This document shows positions 11,161-35,300 of a stretch of 64,000 bases of DNA, in pieces (position 1 is the first letter of the stretch; the number at the start of each line of letters is the position of its first letter). Under the pieces are notes generated by a model that saw only the letters and a program-made list of their open reading frames with translations, ran no database searches and was not told the DNA's origin. Position numbers and translations under genes: made by a program. Location of the stretch: assembly GCF_003334335.1 (NCBI RefSeq), contig NZ_QOWQ01000004.1, one strand, 5' to 3'. Source of the DNA: Escherichia coli (lineage in GTDB: Bacteria; Pseudomonadota; Gammaproteobacteria; Enterobacterales; Enterobacteriaceae).

Positions 11161-11190
11161 AACGCTGGCGTGGAGCAACACGCCAGCGTT
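11161..11190. terminator. Bidirectional hairpin between convergent guaC and hofC
   Basis: Inverted repeat aacgctggcgtg-gagcaa-cacgccagcgtt (approximate). Confidence 0.6.
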
Positions 11191-12391
11191 ATCCCATCCC
11201 ACTCATCGCATCGCCTAAATGGAAAATTGGCAGATACATTGCCACCACCAGCGTACCAATAATTCCTCCCGTTATGATCAGCAACGCCGGTTCCAGTAAG
11301 GCTGCGAGGTTATCCGCCAGCGCCATTGTGTTTTCCCGATGATGATGGGCGAGGTTGTCTAACATGAGATCCAGAGAGCCGGATGCCTCTCCTGTTCTCA
11401 CTAATTGCAAACAGAGCGGGCTAAACTCACCGGTATTTTTTAGCGCCAGCCAGATGGGTTGACCGTTACTGATATCGTGCTGGATTTGTGTCAGAAGTTG
11501 CACCCAGTACGGGCAGCGCATTGTTTCTCTGACGCTCTCTACGCCCTGTAAAAAAGTAATGCCTGCACTTTGTGTCAGCGCCAGAATCGTAAAGATCTGC
11601 GTGAGTTTTTGTCCCCGCATCAGTGAACCCATAATCGGGATGCGTAACAGCAATTTCTGCCGCACTATAAGCCAGGTCGGTCGGCGCATCAGCAACTTAT
11701 TGGCTATCGCCAGCAGAAAGCCGAACAACACCAGCAGCCAGCTCCATTCGCCACTAAAGTCTGCCAGCGTCATGATCCCCTGCGTTAGTGCCGGTAGTGG
11801 GGTGTTGAAGGTCTTATAGATAGCGGCAAACTCCGGCAGAACAAAATGCAGCATTGCCACAACCACCATGATTGCCATCGCTAAAATGATGATGGGATAA
11901 CGTAACGCTGATTTCACTTTGTCGGTCAACTGACGCTGGGCTTTTTGCTGACGCGCCAGTTCAAAGCAGCATTCATCCAGCTTACCGGTCAGTTCACCCG
12001 TGCGGATCATCGCCTGATAGAGCGGCGGAAATACCTCTGACCAGGGTAATAAGGCATTGGAAAAAGCAATGCCCTGTTCGAGATCGTGCGCCAGCGATTG
12101 CAGCAACGCTTGCCATTGCTTACTGGGATGCTGTTCCGCCAGCAGAGCCAGCCCTTCAGAAAGCGTTAACCCTGCTTTGAGTAGCGTCGCCAGTTGATGA
12201 ATGACTTCCGCGCTTTTATCTCCTCGCCACTGCGCAGAATTGATGGCGATTCGCTTCAGGCTTAGTGGGGTAACCATCTGTTGCTGTAGTGCCATAAGCA
12301 GTAAAGTACGGCTCTCTGCCCATAGCATCCCATCTTGCGCATTGCCGTCGCCGGTTATGCCATGCCAGCGCCAGAGTTGCTTACTCGCCAT
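11189..12391 (-). CDS. hofC: Type IV pilus assembly platform protein HofC (PilC/GspF family)
   Basis: 400 aa polytopic membrane protein; recognised. Confidence 0.95.
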   Translation of the reverse strand: MASKQLWRWHGITGDGNAQDGMLWAESRTLLLMALQQQMVTPLSLKRIAINSAQWRGDKSAEVIHQLATLLKAGLTLSEGLALLAEQHPSKQWQALLQSLAHDLEQGIAFSNALLPWSEVFPPLYQAMIRTGELTGKLDECCFELARQQKAQRQLTDKVKSALRYPIIILAMAIMVVVAMLHFVLPEFAAIYKTFNTPLPALTQGIMTLADFSGEWSWLLVLFGFLLAIANKLLMRRPTWLIVRQKLLLRIPIMGSLMRGQKLTQIFTILALTQSAGITFLQGVESVRETMRCPYWVQLLTQIQHDISNGQPIWLALKNTGEFSPLCLQLVRTGEASGSLDLMLDNLAHHHRENTMALADNLAALLEPALLIITGGIIGTLVVAMYLPIFHLGDAMSGMG

Positions 12392-13766
12392 GCGGCATCC
12401 CCAGTACGCGGATTAACTCTTCAAAGGTGGTTAAGCCTTGCTCTACGGCCAGGCAGCCGTTTTCAAAAAGCGTACGCATACCCGCCTGTCGTGCGTGCGT
12501 TTCCAGCGATTCAACGTCGGTATTAGCGGAAATAAGCTGACGAATGACCGGCGTTATGGGCAGAACTTCAAATAAGGCCGTACGACCATAAAAACCGTGG
12601 TAGCAATGTACACAACCGGGTGCCTGCCAGTGGGGCAGCGGCGATGGCCATACATTGTCTGGAATGTGGATGGGCTCCCCTTGCTGCCGGCGACAATGTG
12701 GGCAAAGTTTGCGTACCAGACGCTGGGCTATTACCAGCGTAAGCGCCGATGATAGCATCCAGCGGGCGACCCCCATTTGCTGTAAACGTACCAGCGTTTC
12801 GCAGGTGGAATTAGTGTGTAGGGTAGACAACACCAGGTGACCAGTTTGCGCCGCTTTAATAGCGATCTCTGCTGTTTCGCCATCGCGGATCTCTCCGATC
12901 ATGATGACGTCAGGATCCTGGCGCAATAACGCACGCAAAACGCCCTGAAAGGTGAGTCCGGCACGCGGATGGATTTGCGTCTGGTTTAGTCCGGCTATGG
13001 GGATCTCAACTGGATCTTCGACGCTACAAATATTAATGTCAGCGGTATTCAGCTTTTGCAGGGCACTATAAAGCGTGACCGTTTTGCCGCTGCCGGTAGG
13101 GCCAGTTACCAGCACCAGTCCCTGTGGTTGTTGCAAGGCATGAGCAAAGTCCGCCAGTTGTAACGGCTGCATTCCAAGCGTGTTGACATCCAGTGCCTGA
13201 CCCACCTGCTGTAACAACCTTAATACCACCTTTTCACCACCCCGACATGGTAAGGTCGCAATACGAAATGAGACGGCGTTTCCTGCCAGTTCGACAGTGA
13301 ATTGCCCGTCCTGCGGCAGGCGATGTTCCGCAATATCCAGGTTTCCCAGCACTTTTAATCTGGCGGTTAATGCGACTCCGGCATCCGGTGAAACATCCGG
13401 TAAAGGATGCAATACGCCGTCGATACGCAAGCGGATGCGGTAGGCATTGTCCGCTGGTTCGATATGAATATCAGACGCGCGTTGTTCCAGCGCAGATTGT
13501 AACGTTCGAGTTAGCAACTCTGCTTTGGGCTGATGCTTCTCCTGAACAGCTACGGGCAATGTCTGTTGTGTGCGACTGGCGTGACCTTCCATTTGTTGGC
13601 GCGTCCAGCAGGTGATCTCAATACGTTTGGTGGTAGCGAAATGCAATGCGTCCAGTAGCTCATGCGAAGGTGCATCGACTACCGCAACATGAACCACCTC
13701 TTCGCTGGCATCCAGCAAGACTCCATGATAACGCAGACACAGGGCAGTGAGCTGTGGAATATTCAT
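12381..13766 (-). CDS. hofB: Type IV pilus assembly ATPase HofB (PilB/GspE family)
   Basis: 461 aa; Walker A GPTGSGKT; 11-nt overlap with hofC. Confidence 0.95.
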   Translation of the reverse strand: MNIPQLTALCLRYHGVLLDASEEVVHVAVVDAPSHELLDALHFATTKRIEITCWTRQQMEGHASRTQQTLPVAVQEKHQPKAELLTRTLQSALEQRASDIHIEPADNAYRIRLRIDGVLHPLPDVSPDAGVALTARLKVLGNLDIAEHRLPQDGQFTVELAGNAVSFRIATLPCRGGEKVVLRLLQQVGQALDVNTLGMQPLQLADFAHALQQPQGLVLVTGPTGSGKTVTLYSALQKLNTADINICSVEDPVEIPIAGLNQTQIHPRAGLTFQGVLRALLRQDPDVIMIGEIRDGETAEIAIKAAQTGHLVLSTLHTNSTCETLVRLQQMGVARWMLSSALTLVIAQRLVRKLCPHCRRQQGEPIHIPDNVWPSPLPHWQAPGCVHCYHGFYGRTALFEVLPITPVIRQLISANTDVESLETHARQAGMRTLFENGCLAVEQGLTTFEELIRVLGMPHGE

Positions 13767-13775
13767 TGCCGCTCC

Positions 13776-14216
13776 TTAGTTGGCGTCATCAAAGCGGAAG
13801 ACATCTTCGCAGGCTTGCTGCAATGCGCTGTCACTTTGAATATTGCAGTTGCGCGTCCAGCCGGTGACGCCGTTTGCGTTATCCCAACCCGGTGTCATGA
13901 CGACGCTTAGCCCATTGAGACTTTCTTGCCCGGTCAGCGACACCACGCCCTTTGCCACACTCATGGCTGAAACATAGCGGGTGGTGGTAGGCGAGGGAAT
14001 GCCATTGCTGCCACCGTCGCAGGTATCTAATCCACCATGTTCCAGCGCGCACAACTCTACGGCGGTACGGTAAGGCACAAAGGTTTGTAGCATGTCGGTG
14101 AGTGCGGCTTTGCGCAGGTAGTTTTGATAAGCGGGAATACCAATGGCGCTTAAAATGGCAATGATGCCAATAACCACCATCAGTTCGATAAGTGTAAAAC
14201 CGCGTTGCTTGTCCAT
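13776..14216 (-). CDS. ppdD: Prepilin PpdD (type IV major pilin)
   Basis: 146 aa; prepilin N-terminus MDKQRGFTLIELMVVIGIIAIL (G|F cleavage site, N-methyl Phe). Confidence 0.95.
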   Translation of the reverse strand: MDKQRGFTLIELMVVIGIIAILSAIGIPAYQNYLRKAALTDMLQTFVPYRTAVELCALEHGGLDTCDGGSNGIPSPTTTRYVSAMSVAKGVVSLTGQESLNGLSVVMTPGWDNANGVTGWTRNCNIQSDSALQQACEDVFRFDDAN

Positions 14217-32264: not shown

Positions 32265-33131
32265 TTAGGACGGCTGTGAAGCCAGTGCGTCTTGCAGATA
32301 CTGAGGTAAGGCAAAAGCTGCCGTATGGATTGCCGGATTGTAATAACGGCATTTCAGGCCAGAGGCGAGAAAACGCGCCTGAATAATTTCGGTTGAGAGA
32401 TGGCGTAAGGCGTCGTTATCTGTCGCCCATGCAAAAGTCATGATACCGCCGTAATAGGTCGGGATCGCCGCCTGATAAAAGCCAACGTCGCTGAAGTAAT
32501 GGCTGAGTTTGCGATGGCTGTCGATGGCTTCTTCCTGCTGTAAAAAGCAGACGCCGTTTTGTGCGACGAAGATACCGCCAGGATTCAGGCAACGTTTGCA
32601 GCCTTCATAAAATGCCGAAGTGAAAAGGCTTTCGCCGGGACCGATAGGATCGGTGCAGTCGGAGATAATGACATCAAAGGTCTGGCTGGTTTGATTAACG
32701 AAATTGACGCCATCGTCGATCACCAGCTTAAAGCGCGGATCGTCGTAGCTACCGGCGTTATGGTTGGGTAGATACTGACGGCAGAACGATACGACACCCG
32801 CATCGATTTCCACCATCGTGATTGACTCAACGTTTTTATGTCGGGTTACTTCACGCAGCATGGCACCGTCGCCGCCGCCGATAATCAGCACATGTTTCGC
32901 GTGACCATGGGCCAGTAGCGGAACATGGGTCATCATCTCATGATAGATAAACTCGTCGCGCTCGGTGGTTTGTACTACGCCATCCAGCGCCATTACGCGA
33001 CCAAATGCAGCGTTCTCAAAAATGATCAGATCCTGGTGATCGGTCTTTTCATGATACAGAACGTTATCTACCGCAAAGTACTGCCCAAACTGGTCGTGTA
33101 GCGTTTCATGCCACTGTTTTTTTTCGGCCAT
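32265..33131 (-). CDS. speE: Spermidine synthase SpeE
   Basis: 288 aa; GGGDGA motif; 15-nt gap to speD (operon). Confidence 0.97.
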
Positions 33132-33236
33132 GGGTTGATACCTCCTTTGTTAACACCCGTAAAAAAAGGGCGCAACATAATAGCTAACATTGACCGCGGA
33201 TGCACGGTCAATATTTCTACAAAAAGGTATCAGGGA

Positions 33237-33584
33237 TTATTTGACGTAGGCAAGCAGGCTTAAGGAATCGCGGGCCAGGGCTTTGCATTTTTTAGCGACG
33301 GGAATGCCAATGCCGCTGAGATCGCGGTAGCTGTCTTCACCGAGGGCTTTCATGTCGAAGGTGTCGTAATTACTGAGGTCCCACTGGTTTTGCAGAGCGA
33401 AAAAGACCAGTGCGCGACGAATTTGCCCGTTAGGTAAGTTCTGGTAACCACAATCGTTCTTCAGAAAGACAAAAACTGCCGTTAAATCGGCCATATCTTC
33501 GGCTTCAGACTCGCTGAGCGCGTAACTGTTTGCGCAGACGGCCATCAGGCTGCCGAATAACACTGTTCTGAAAAACGTCTTCAT
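33237..33584 (-). CDS. yacC: Periplasmic protein YacC (function unknown; PulS/OutS-like, from memory)
   Basis: 115 aa starting MKTFFRTVLFGSLMAVCANSYA (signal peptide); track ORF extends 57 codons upstream. Confidence 0.88.
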   Translation of the reverse strand: MKTFFRTVLFGSLMAVCANSYALSESEAEDMADLTAVFVFLKNDCGYQNLPNGQIRRALVFFALQNQWDLSNYDTFDMKALGEDSYRDLSGIGIPVAKKCKALARDSLSLLAYVK

Positions 33585-33674
33585 TGCTTCTACCAGGGGC
33601 TTAAAGAAGATAAACGTTAGCACACTGCGAGCGAGGCGACGACCATTATTGTCGATTAAATTGTGTCTGCGGCT

Positions 33675-33704
33675 TGACCTTCCCGTAAGGGGAAGGACTA
33701 TGCT
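33675..33704 (+). promoter_or_regulatory. MerR-type (CueR) promoter for cueO: -35 ttgacc, 19-bp spacer with dyad ccttcc-N7-ggaagg, -10 tatgct
   Basis: Read directly: cttgaccTTCCCgtaaggGGAAGGacTATGCT about 45 nt upstream of cueO ATG; 19-bp spacer and dyad are hallmarks of CueR-activated promoters. Confidence 0.8.
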
Positions 33705-33749
33705 CAACGTTTGATTTTGTTTCGCCTGCTTAAGAATAAGGAAATAACT

Positions 33750-35300
33750 ATGCAACGTCGTGATTTCTTAAAATATTCCGTCGCGCTGGGTGTGGCTTCG
33801 GCTTTGCCGCTGTGGAGCCGCGCAGTATTTGCGGCAGAACGCCCAACGTTACCGATCCCTGATTTGCTCACGACCGATGCCCGTAATCGCATTCAGTTAA
33901 CTATTGGCGCAGGCCAGTCCACCTTTGGCGGGAAAACTGCAACTACCTGGGGCTATAACGGCAATCTGCTGGGGCCGGCGGTGAAATTACAGCGCGGCAA
34001 AGCGGTAACGGTTGATATCTACAACCAACTGACGGAAGAGACAACGTTGCACTGGCACGGGCTGGAAGTACCGGGTGAAGTCGACGGCGGCCCGCAGGGA
34101 ATTATTCCGCCAGGTGGCAAGCGCTCGGTGACGTTGAACGTTGATCAACCTGCCGCTACCTGCTGGTTCCATCCGCATCAGCACGGCAAAACCGGGCGAC
34201 AGGTGGCGATGGGGCTGGCTGGGCTGGTGGTGATTGAAGATGACGAGATCCTGAAATTAATGCTGCCAAAACAGTGGGGTATCGATGATGTTCCGGTGAT
34301 CGTTCAGGATAAGAAATTTAGCGCCGACGGGCAGATTGATTATCAACTGGATGTGATGACCGCCGCCGTGGGCTGGTTTGGCGATACGTTGCTGACCAAC
34401 GGTGCAATCTACCCGCAACACGCTGCCCCGCGTGGTTGGCTGCGCCTGCGTTTGCTCAATGGCTGTAATGCCCGTTCGCTCAATTTCGCCACCAGCGACA
34501 ATCGCCCGCTGTATGTGATTGCCAGCGACGGTGGTCTGCTACCTGAACCAGTGAAGGTGAGCGAACTGCCGGTGCTGATGGGCGAGCGTTTTGAAGTGCT
34601 GGTGGAGGTTAACGATAACAAACCCTTTGACCTGGTGACGCTGCCGGTCAGCCAGATGGGGATGGCGATTGCGCCGTTTGATAAGCCTCATCCGGTAATG
34701 CGGATTCAGCCGATTGCTATTAGTGCCTCCGGTGCTTTGCCAGACACATTAAGTAGCCTGCCTGCGTTACCTTCGCTGGAAGGGCTGACGGTACGCAAGC
34801 TGCAACTCTCTATGGACCCGATGCTCGATATGATGGGGATGCAGATGCTAATGGAGAAATATGGCGATCAGGCGATGGCCGGGATGGATCACAGCCAGAT
34901 GATGGGCCATATGGGGCACGGCAATATGAATCATATGAACCACGGCGGGAAGTTCGATTTCCACCATGCCAACAAAATCAACGGTCAGGCGTTTGATATG
35001 AACAAGCCGATGTTTGCGGCGGCGAAAGGGCAATACGAACGTTGGGTTATCTCTGGCGTGGGCGACATGATGCTGCATCCGTTCCATATCCACGGCACGC
35101 AGTTCCGTATCTTGTCAGAAAATGGCAAACCGCCAGCGGCTCATCGCGCGGGCTGGAAAGATACCGTTAAGGTAGAAGGTAATGTCAGCGAAGTGCTGGT
35201 GAAGTTTAATCACGATGCACCGAAAGAACATGCTTATATGGCGCACTGCCATCTGCTGGAGCATGAAGATACGGGGATGATGTTAGGGTTTACGGTATAA
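33750..35300 (+). CDS. cueO: Multicopper oxidase CueO (Tat-secreted cuprous oxidase)
   Basis: 516 aa starting [23 protein letters not shown] (twin-arginine signal); copper ligands [17 protein letters not shown]; Met-rich insert. Confidence 0.97.

Follow-up and report, generated by a model that had tools for sequence, protein, structure and literature searches.

The pilotins PulS, OutS and EtpO of type II secretion systems (T2SS) (GspS; PF09691, TIGR01004; PDB entries 4A56, 3UTK, 3SOL and 6HCG) are lipoproteins with an unusual four-helix fold, a disulfide between helices 1 and 4, and conserved residues on a concave face. E. coli also has a T2SS pilotin of the Vibrio type, the lipoprotein AspS/GspS-beta (YghG); it is encoded inside the gsp-beta operon and is the actual GspD-beta pilot in EPEC and ETEC. 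In the CueR promoters PcopA and PcueO, a -35 hexamer TTGACC and a -10 hexamer TATGCT are separated by 19 bp, with a dyad in the spacer. Re-alignment of the two hexamers by the metal-loaded regulator is the established mechanism of the MerR family. In the mer operon, the divergent promoter of the regulator overlaps the MerR operator. Direct binding of CueR has been established in earlier work (Outten et al., 2000). We compared with these systems the yacC-cueO locus of E. coli, contained in a 64-kb stretch of chromosomal DNA (hereafter the window).

The gene order in the window is acnB-yacL-speD-speE-yacC-cueO-gcd. The yacC gene (33237..33584, minus strand, ATG at 33584), identified by its open reading frame and translation, encodes a precursor of 115 aa followed by a stop codon, and its product is named 'YacC family pilotin-like protein' in RefSeq. 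The multicopper oxidase gene cueO (33750..35300, plus strand, ATG at 33750; open reading frame and RefSeq) encodes a protein whose N-terminus is a twin-arginine signal peptide (MQRRDFLK...). A first-pass annotation of this DNA had placed the start of yacC about 170 bp from cueO on the opposite strand, and the measured intergenic distance is 165 bp. A gap of 105 bp separates yacC from its downstream neighbour speE (32265..33131, likewise on the minus strand; open reading frame and RefSeq). The 701-bp stretch speE/yacC/cueO was found, with these genes annotated, in 5425 of 5426 complete E. coli genomes. A genome collection was scanned with an 8-sequence alignment, the matches being all at least 88% identical, and the contexts of seven distant loci were obtained by exact-protein look-ups. 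Of 80 enterobacterial loci, 79 show the divergent layout of yacC and cueO, which also occurs in two distant lineages. The pair is embedded in the enterobacterial synteny yadGH-can-hpt-[gcd]-cueO-yacC-speED, and the order yacC-speE-speD is retained even at loci without cueO. An Rfam scan of positions 33000-33900 returned only sub-threshold snoRNA noise and no RNA element. The locus is an ordinary and well-known one, mostly covered already by Dunstan et al. (2013) or by the NCBI annotation.

The cueO promoter has MerR/CueR architecture and is PcueO itself. Its -35 hexamer TTGACC (33674..33679, plus strand) is invariant in all 77 distinct enterobacterial intergenic regions, and 75 of them have either TATGCT or TAAGCT at the place of its -10 hexamer TATGCT (33699..33704, plus strand). 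The spacer (33680-33698) keeps its length of 19 bp in 77/77 regions. A CueR-type operator, the dyad CCTTCC-N7-GGAAGG with 0 mismatches (33678..33696), overlaps the -35 hexamer and fills the spacer; across genera, the alignment of intergenic regions gives CCTTCC-N7-GGRRGG. The dyad without mismatch has a single match in the whole window. The composite promoter pattern, with 22 specified bases, also matched the window only once, even when 3 mismatches were allowed, and did not occur in 100 dinucleotide-preserving shuffles. The arrangement TTGACC-19-TA[TA]GCT was also present at two distant loci (L086 and L089). The MerR-family layout that the first-pass annotation had read here, with ttgacc, a 19-bp spacer carrying the dyad and tatgct, was therefore confirmed element by element at these coordinates. 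A sigma-70 scan of positions 33050-33850 with spacers of 16-18 bp did not reveal any promoter, as expected with the over-long cueO spacer; the scan is in fact uninformative, since its spacer length and -35 requirements exclude both the cueO and the yacC promoters. By analogy with the described promoters, CueR would bind the dyad inside the over-long 19-bp spacer, and Cu(I)-loaded CueR would re-align the -35 and -10 hexamers for the sigma-70 RNA polymerase. As a reference example of its class, the cueO promoter gains nothing new from our analysis.

Conservation of the same intergenic region led to the prediction of a separate promoter for yacC, an extended -10 element TGCTAACGT (TG + TAACGT; 33614..33622, minus strand) that would function without a -35 hexamer. 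This element is the best-conserved block of the intergenic region, exact in 75 of the 77 distinct regions and near-exact in the other two, and its position is fixed at 28-29 nt from the yacC ATG. Sodalis-type loci and other distant ones (L084, L085, L087 and L089) carry it too, including L085 and L087, where there is no intact cueO. A recognisable -35 hexamer is absent, the corresponding bases being TCGTCG (33637-33642), and the transcription start is predicted near 33607. The probable ribosome-binding region GGTAGAAG (33587..33594, minus strand), assigned from the conserved block CTTCTACC, lies between this start and the ATG. In published work, the D445V substitution in region 2.4 of sigma-70, which works via spacer and -14 contacts, lowered the expression of only four genes, yacC among them. 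The promoter set of Reg-Seq 2025 includes yacC as well, though its text states no result for it. In the 77 intergenic regions, the yacC promoter and the CueR box are separated by 44 to 100 bp, so that there is no helical phase lock between the two promoters. Seen from the predicted yacC start, the centre of the CueR site lies about 80 bp upstream; whereas the divergent promoter of the mer operon overlaps its operator, that of yacC is clear of the CueR site. With this site outside its core promoter, yacC would be transcribed from the -35-independent extended -10 at a modest and copper-independent level.

The first-pass annotation had raised the possibility of copper/CueR control shared by the two genes. 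In its full form, this would make yacC and cueO a true CueR-controlled divergon, in which CueR bound between the two genes activates or represses yacC in response to copper and the role of YacC in the periplasm is related to copper, for instance in helping CueO. Such a divergon would fit the conserved divergent layout, the listing of a 'yacC-yacK divergon' with a CueR site in a comparative-genomics paper, and the recovery of transposon insertions in yacC and cueO from one Klebsiella screen. However, published expression data argue otherwise. Upon HgCl2 stress, RNA-seq showed cueO up 20.7x and 17.8x and copA up 25x and 20x, whereas yacC was either not significantly changed or down 2.0x. Only at one phenylmercury time point (t10) did yacC increase together with cueO (2.8x and 5.5x, respectively), which would favour common control. 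For copper, a preprint (bioRxiv 2026.03.12.711415) gives an increase of cueO of about 44x at 2 mM Cu. Besides having its own conserved -10 element at a distance from the CueR box that differs among genera, yacC survives with its promoter in lineages where cueO was lost. Mature YacC (93 aa, 10.4 kDa, pI 4.7) contains no His, 2 Met and 2 Cys, the latter aligned with a structural disulfide, and so offers no obvious copper ligands. As for the divergent layout, adjacency carries little information because the entire neighbourhood is syntenic. We therefore consider a CueR-controlled divergon highly improbable. Instead, yacC and cueO would be two independent, back-to-back transcription units, their adjacency representing inherited enterobacterial synteny and not functional coupling. 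The first-pass annotation had named two outcomes that would count against its proposal, yacC expression unaffected by copper or CueR and a YacC protein lacking the pilotin fold. The mercury RNA-seq data suggest that expression is indeed unaffected, but the fold is present, as described below. This negative result is useful in that copper and CueR appear to be the wrong place to look for the role of YacC.

We then considered the YacC protein itself. Residues 1-22 (33519..33584, minus strand) form a predicted signal peptide whose cleavage site, SYA/LSESE (the slash marks the cut), is of the signal peptidase I type, and in which no lipobox is conserved. In the N-termini of 120 homologues the SYA/LSESE site is conserved, while most genera have Ser at the position of Cys17 of the E. 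coli protein, where the context is M-A-V-C and the -1 residue is Val. Distant members carry AQA/L, SQA/L, GQA/L or AAA/L and no Cys. An N-terminal lipobox Cys was thus not found as a conserved feature in the 120 homologues or in the distant members. Judged from these N-termini, YacC is not a lipoprotein and the 'lipoprotein' annotations attached to it are probably wrong; without a conserved lipobox, it fails the defining feature of pilotins. YacC would be exported by the Sec pathway, cut by signal peptidase I and remain soluble in the periplasm, in agreement with its initial description as a small secreted protein.

The relationship of YacC to the pilotins was supported by sequence and structure comparisons. 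YacC is the namesake of the NCBIfam family NF037975, which it matches over its full length (193.4 bits for a cutoff of 80, residues 1-115 of 115). Pfam PF09691 matches YacC at 5.4e-9, but the TIGR01004 equivalog model of GspS gives only 35.7 bits, below its cutoff of 75. Sequence comparison detected OutS at 1.2e-5 and PulS at 0.016, proteins of a size similar to that of YacC. These scores make YacC a homologue of GspS without placing it among the equivalogs. The AF2 model of YacC has a pLDDT of 85 overall and above 90 for the mature part, and a Foldseek search with this model returned four T2SS pilotin structures as the four best matches (target-normalised TM 0.71-0.78). The model predicts the four-helix pilotin fold with a disulfide between helices 1 and 4, and the two invariant Cys of YacC (C45 and C100) align with the C61-C115 disulfide of OutS. 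The PulS/OutS-like character ascribed to YacC in the first-pass annotation is therefore borne out.

Invariant residues of YacC are found on helices 1 (A32, L34, A36), 3 (Y86, D88, L89) and 4 (K99, C100, L103), which in OutS make up the binding face, and I92 is invariant in the loop right after helix 3. In the OutS/YacC alignment, several contact positions are hydrophobic in YacC as well (L47/M31, L50/L34, A52/A36, L104/L89, F118/L103), whereas others are altered (Q46/D30, S49/D33, L100/S85, D107/I92, Q114/K99). YacC thus differs from PulS and OutS by acidic residues at positions 30 and 33 and by I92 instead of a D/E cap. YacC belongs to a small family: among 1.84 billion representatives, it accounts for 43 clusters at 50% identity. 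Three repeat proteins that matched YacC in the search of representatives (P0130, P0156 and P0159) looked like compositional noise and were dropped, and a homologue search with an rcsF-linked relative (P0146) retrieved only that protein.

Since YacC has the fold and homology of PulS and OutS, it might act as pilotin or co-pilotin for a distant secretin, either GspD-alpha or PulD of the Klebsiella-type T2SS, or else HofQ, which belongs to the type IV pilus/competence system with ppdD-hofBC. No pilotin is known for GspD-alpha of K-12, and the sole secretin-dependent machinery in the window, hofC-hofB-ppdD (11189-14216), is located 19 kb from yacC. Furthermore, an uncomplemented K. pneumoniae yacC::Tn5 mutant had no pullulanase (PulA) in the outer membrane, and an uncomplemented cueO::Tn5 mutant came from the same screen. 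These mutants hint at a T2SS-related role or at some coupling between yacC and cueO. However, no family member has a lipobox, which makes Lol-dependent piloting by YacC impossible, the GspS score is below cutoff, and the peptide-contact residues of OutS are replaced and differently fixed (Q46 by D30, S49 by D33, L100 by S85 and the D/E107 cap by I92). As already noticed by the first-pass annotation, yacC does not adjoin a secretin: no secretin gene was found in the window, within 6 kb on either side of yacC in the 80 enterobacterial loci (flanked by gcd/cueO/speE), or at the seven distant loci. YacC is also present and conserved in Salmonella, and Salmonella enterica is not known to have a T2SS. 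Klebsiella, for its part, already possesses PulS. In EPEC, which has no second T2SS secretin, deletion of yacC left SslE secretion and GspD assembly normal, and YacC was dispensable for GspD-beta in EPEC or BL21; the orphan status of YacC and the negative pilotin test are thus already published (Dunstan et al., 2013). The GspD-beta job, once suspected for YacC, belongs to AspS, whose fold and sequence are unrelated to those of YacC. A role of YacC as a secretin pilot appears unlikely on this evidence.

The reading that we prefer, to which we assign a probability of about 0.7, is that of independent units, a CueR-type one for cueO and one with its own promoter for yacC, with YacC a soluble periplasmic protein of pilotin fold that is not a pilot. 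YacC would adopt the PulS/OutS fold, with four helices stapled by a disulfide, and its concave face, formed by helices 1, 3 and 4, probably clamps an amphipathic client peptide as pilotins do, although with a different chemistry; we infer this clamping purely from the resemblance. Having no lipid anchor, YacC cannot use the Lol pathway; given its altered surface chemistry as well, its expected role would be that of a binding or chaperone-like factor in the periplasm, with a client outside the T2SS, and not that of a secretin pilot. A more specific version is a long shot that we offer tentatively: YacC may be a soluble, non-piloting offshoot of the pilotin fold, with a re-tuned, acidic concave face that clamps an envelope client outside the T2SS by an amphipathic or basic peptide, a function that would maintain housekeeping-level constraint across Enterobacterales. 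Possible clients would be partners that resemble secretins or are outer-membrane lipoproteins, for example HofQ or RcsF, and also CueO itself. If true, this proposal also accounts for the absence of surface pullulanase from the yacC mutant of Klebsiella. The client, once found, would reveal a use of the PulS/OutS fold outside type II secretion and could also clarify the pullulanase phenotype.

Finally, we considered whether yacC could be a decaying or functionless pilotin paralogue that survives by linkage to essential or core neighbours. No phenotype is known in E. coli, the family is small as indicated above, and strain HB101 is healthy despite an IS1 insertion 6 bp upstream of the yacC ATG, all of which would agree with decay. 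However, the dN/dS of yacC (0.01-0.06) is equal to that of speE and below that of cueO, which at the sequence level indicates strong purifying selection and contradicts a functionless gene. Between genera, YacC proteins are 88-99% identical, and all but one of the 5426 E. coli genomes carry the gene. It is intact in the reduced genomes of Arsenophonus and Sodalis and where the neighbouring cueO has decayed. In published data, yacC is transcribed and the YacC protein is detected in proteomes. The probability that yacC is functionless is thus close to negligible. With a pilotin fold, no lipid anchor, no secretin and selection as strong as that on a core metabolic enzyme, YacC ranks among those proteins of the E. 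coli 'y-ome' that are better conserved. In a published transposon screen of Salmonella Enteritidis, yacC was associated with mild attenuation in macrophages (log2FC -1.33).

Of 5426 complete E. coli genomes, 5425 contain the 701 bases around the yacC-cueO divergent pair, and this stretch is annotated there as speE, yacC ('YacC family pilotin-like protein') and cueO. The window is E. coli chromosome with the neighbouring order acnB-yacL-speD-speE-yacC-cueO-gcd-hpt, and the yacC-cueO locus is fully annotated. The yacC gene (33237-33584, minus strand, 115 codons) and the plus-strand gene cueO, whose start lies at 33750, are separated by a 165 bp intergenic region. The cueO promoter consists of a -35 element TTGACC (33674-33679, plus strand) and a -10 element TATGCT (33699-33704, plus strand) separated by a 19-bp spacer, with a perfect CueR-type dyad CCTTCC-N7-GGAAGG (33678-33696) that begins within the -35 hexamer and extends through the spacer. 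This is exactly the layout described in the first-pass annotation. The composite pattern had a single match in 64 kb, even when three mismatches were allowed, and did not occur in 100 shuffles. A generic promoter scan with spacers of 16-18 bp did not find this promoter, as expected from its 19-bp spacer. All 77 distinct intergenic regions compared between yacC and cueO (Escherichia, Citrobacter, Salmonella, Enterobacter, Lelliottia, Leclercia, Kosakonia, Klebsiella, Raoultella and others) contained TTGACC-19-TA[TA]GCT and the dyad, as did two far more distant loci (L086 and L089). The cueO promoter is the reference CueR promoter, and the yacC-yacK divergon has been listed with a CueR site (Permina et al. 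2006). In published RNA-seq data, 2 mM copper increased cueO expression about 44-fold; after HgCl2 addition, cueO and copA increased 20.7- and 25-fold at 10 min and 17.8- and 20.4-fold at 30 min (LaVoie and Summers 2018).

The intergenic alignment contains a second, separate conserved block, which corresponds to a predicted extended -10 element of yacC, TGCTAACGT (TG-n-TAACGT; 33614-33622, minus strand), with no recognisable -35 element. It was exact in 75 of the 77 regions and near-exact in the remaining two. Its distance to the yacC ATG was always 28-29 nt, and its distance to the cueO -35 element was variable (44, 45, 51, 54-56, 65, 89 or 100 bp). In E. coli, the CueR dyad has its centre some 80 bp upstream of the point where yacC transcription is predicted to begin; this places it outside the yacC core promoter, with which it is not phase-locked. 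The same element was found at the same distance from the ATG in a locus where cueO is absent and hpt directly adjoins yacC (L085, 5286-6001), in a low-GC relative where only a short cueO remnant adjoins an intact yacC (L087, 5627-5845), in the Sodalis-type locus L084 and in L089, whose YacC is 38% identical. Upon HgCl2 treatment, with mercury rather than copper as inducer, yacC showed no significant change at 10 min and a 2.0-fold decrease at 30 min, paralleled by a drop of speE, while cueO and copA were up 18-25-fold at those times; yacC was increased (2.8-fold) at one phenylmercury time point only (LaVoie and Summers 2018). Shared control of yacC by copper or CueR, as raised in the first-pass annotation, is therefore disfavoured by the separate promoter block, its variable spacing, its persistence without cueO and the HgCl2 response.

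Two further observations concern this promoter. The rare sigma-70 substitution D445V, located in region 2.4 and acting via spacer and -14 contacts, lowered yacC as one of only four genes affected in this way in both MG1655 and AIEC LF82 (PMC13192267). As an indirect consistency check, this fits a yacC promoter (33614-33642) relying on the -14/-15 contacts of an extended -10 element. In E. coli HB101 (locus L092, corresponding to window 33582-33591), an IS1A insertion (768 bp plus a 9-bp target duplication, CATTGCTTC) lies 6 bp upstream of the ATG of yacC. It parts yacC from its probable ribosome-binding site and its predicted extended -10 element and shifts the cueO promoter 777 bp away. The insertion acts as a natural yacC promoter knock-out in a healthy laboratory strain.

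The pilotin fold named for YacC in the first-pass annotation was confirmed by sequence and structure comparisons. YacC matched the NCBIfam model NF037975 (YacC family) over its full length (193 bits) and Pfam PF09691 (PulS_OutS) with an E-value of 5.4e-9, and scored only 35.7 bits against the GspS equivalog model TIGR01004 (cutoff 75). A PDB sequence search retrieved OutS (1.2e-5) and PulS (0.016) across the entire mature protein. The AlphaFold2 model (pLDDT 85 overall, above 90 in the mature part) has helices at residues 25-44, 52-65, 78-91 and 96-113; its best four Foldseek matches were exactly the four solved T2SS pilotins (target-normalised TM 0.71-0.78), matches below these being noise. 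The invariant C45 and C100 align with the C61-C115 disulfide of OutS, which is required for secretin binding.

Pilotins are outer-membrane lipoproteins carried by the Lol system, with a lipobox such as LAAC in OutS, whereas YacC has no conserved lipobox and is not a pilotin by this definition. The sole N-terminal cysteine of E. coli YacC (M-A-V-C17) has valine at -1, and most genera carry serine in its place. What is conserved is a site for signal peptidase I, SYA|LSESE; the distant members (24-62% identity) likewise all lack such a cysteine and carry sites of the A-x-A type. From its sequence, mature YacC is therefore predicted to remain soluble in the periplasm, with 93 residues and a pI of 4.7. 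The mature protein has no histidine, two methionines and two cysteines that align with the structural disulfide, and thus no obvious copper ligands. Mapping of the OutS residues that touch the OutD peptide through the PDB-search alignment indicated that YacC retains the site's hydrophobic core (OutS/YacC L47/M31, L50/L34, A52/A36, L104/L89, F118/L103), whereas D30 replaces the pilotin-invariant Q46, D33 the small S49, S85 takes the place of L100 and the invariant I92, in the loop right after helix 3, that of the helix-capping D/E107. The invariant residues of YacC lie on helices 1, 3 and 4, which are those forming the OutS binding face. We infer that a peptide-binding face was retained with changed specificity. 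In the mechanism we prefer, YacC would be exported by Sec, remain soluble in the periplasm as a disulfide-stapled PulS-fold protein expressed independently of copper, and might clamp a peptide stretch within a non-T2SS client. We estimate the probability of the regulatory and localisation parts of this mechanism at about 0.7.

The orphan-pilotin puzzle is already published. YacC was recognised as a PulS-OutS family member by Dunstan et al. (2013), who found that SslE secretion and GspD assembly were normal in an EPEC yacC deletion mutant and that co-expression of YacC did not help GspD to reach the outer membrane; their conclusion was that it is either a pilotin of unrelated secretins or a protein of fundamentally different function. 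GspD-alpha of K-12 has no known pilotin. In K. pneumoniae, an NF-kB/immune-evasion screen (114 hits from 5320 mutants) yielded independent Tn5 insertions in KPN_00130 (yacC) and the adjacent KPN_00131 (cueO), and the yacC mutant was devoid of outer-membrane pullulanase (Tomás et al. 2015, PMC4505419). Since neither mutant was complemented, either insertion may have affected the neighbouring gene through polarity or regulation. A transposon screen in Salmonella Enteritidis gave mild macrophage attenuation for yacC. Our additions are modest: the family-wide non-lipoprotein call, a conserved extended -10 promoter predicted to act autonomously, the finding that yacC persists where cueO is lost and an estimate of selection. 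The dN/dS ratios against nine genera were 0.010-0.062 for yacC, 0.022-0.044 for speE and 0.026-0.129 for cueO, of which only the ranking is meaningful because dS is saturated. YacC is 88-99% identical across Enterobacteriaceae versus 73-98% for CueO, and yacC is retained in Arsenophonus and Sodalis, whose genomes are reduced. The gene is transcribed (raw RNA-seq counts) and the protein has been detected in proteomes. YacC forms a narrow family: among 1.84 billion representatives it accounts for 43 clusters at 50% identity, mostly fragments, and relatives occur in about 325 species genomes.

The adjacency of yacC and cueO is best explained as inherited gene order. They are divergent in 79 of 80 enterobacterial loci, in which the entire block yadGH-can-hpt-(gcd)-cueO-yacC-speED is syntenic, and in distant lineages yacC is linked to speED with or without cueO. 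Loci of the Citrobacter freundii complex (L006, L007, L010, L015, L017, L019-L024 and L030) keep cueO-yacC and have no speE downstream of yacC in the fetched flank, indicating that the yacC-speED linkage is broken in this group. No secretin was found within 6 kb of yacC at any locus examined, in agreement with the first-pass annotation. The only secretin-dependent machinery near yacC is hofC-hofB-ppdD (type IV pilin/competence pseudopilus genes; 11189-14216, minus strand), 19 kb away, whose secretin HofQ is encoded outside the window. The stretch from the stop of yacC to the start of speE contains an 11-nt inverted repeat (33186-33215, AACATTGACCG / CGGTCAATATT, 8-nt loop), which is not followed by a T-run and could be a weak terminator or belong to the promoter region of speED. 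Of the YacC-like proteins, the two that diverge most (24-35% identity; L090 1627-2573 and L091 5386-7672, on contigs of 34-37% GC) are encoded away from speE and cueO, in the setting GATase - yacC-like - rcsF - trmO, with the class-I glutamine amidotransferase gene on one side, rcsF-trmO on the other and all genes on one strand. This arrangement may point to a connection with RcsF, an envelope sensor, or may be coincidental.
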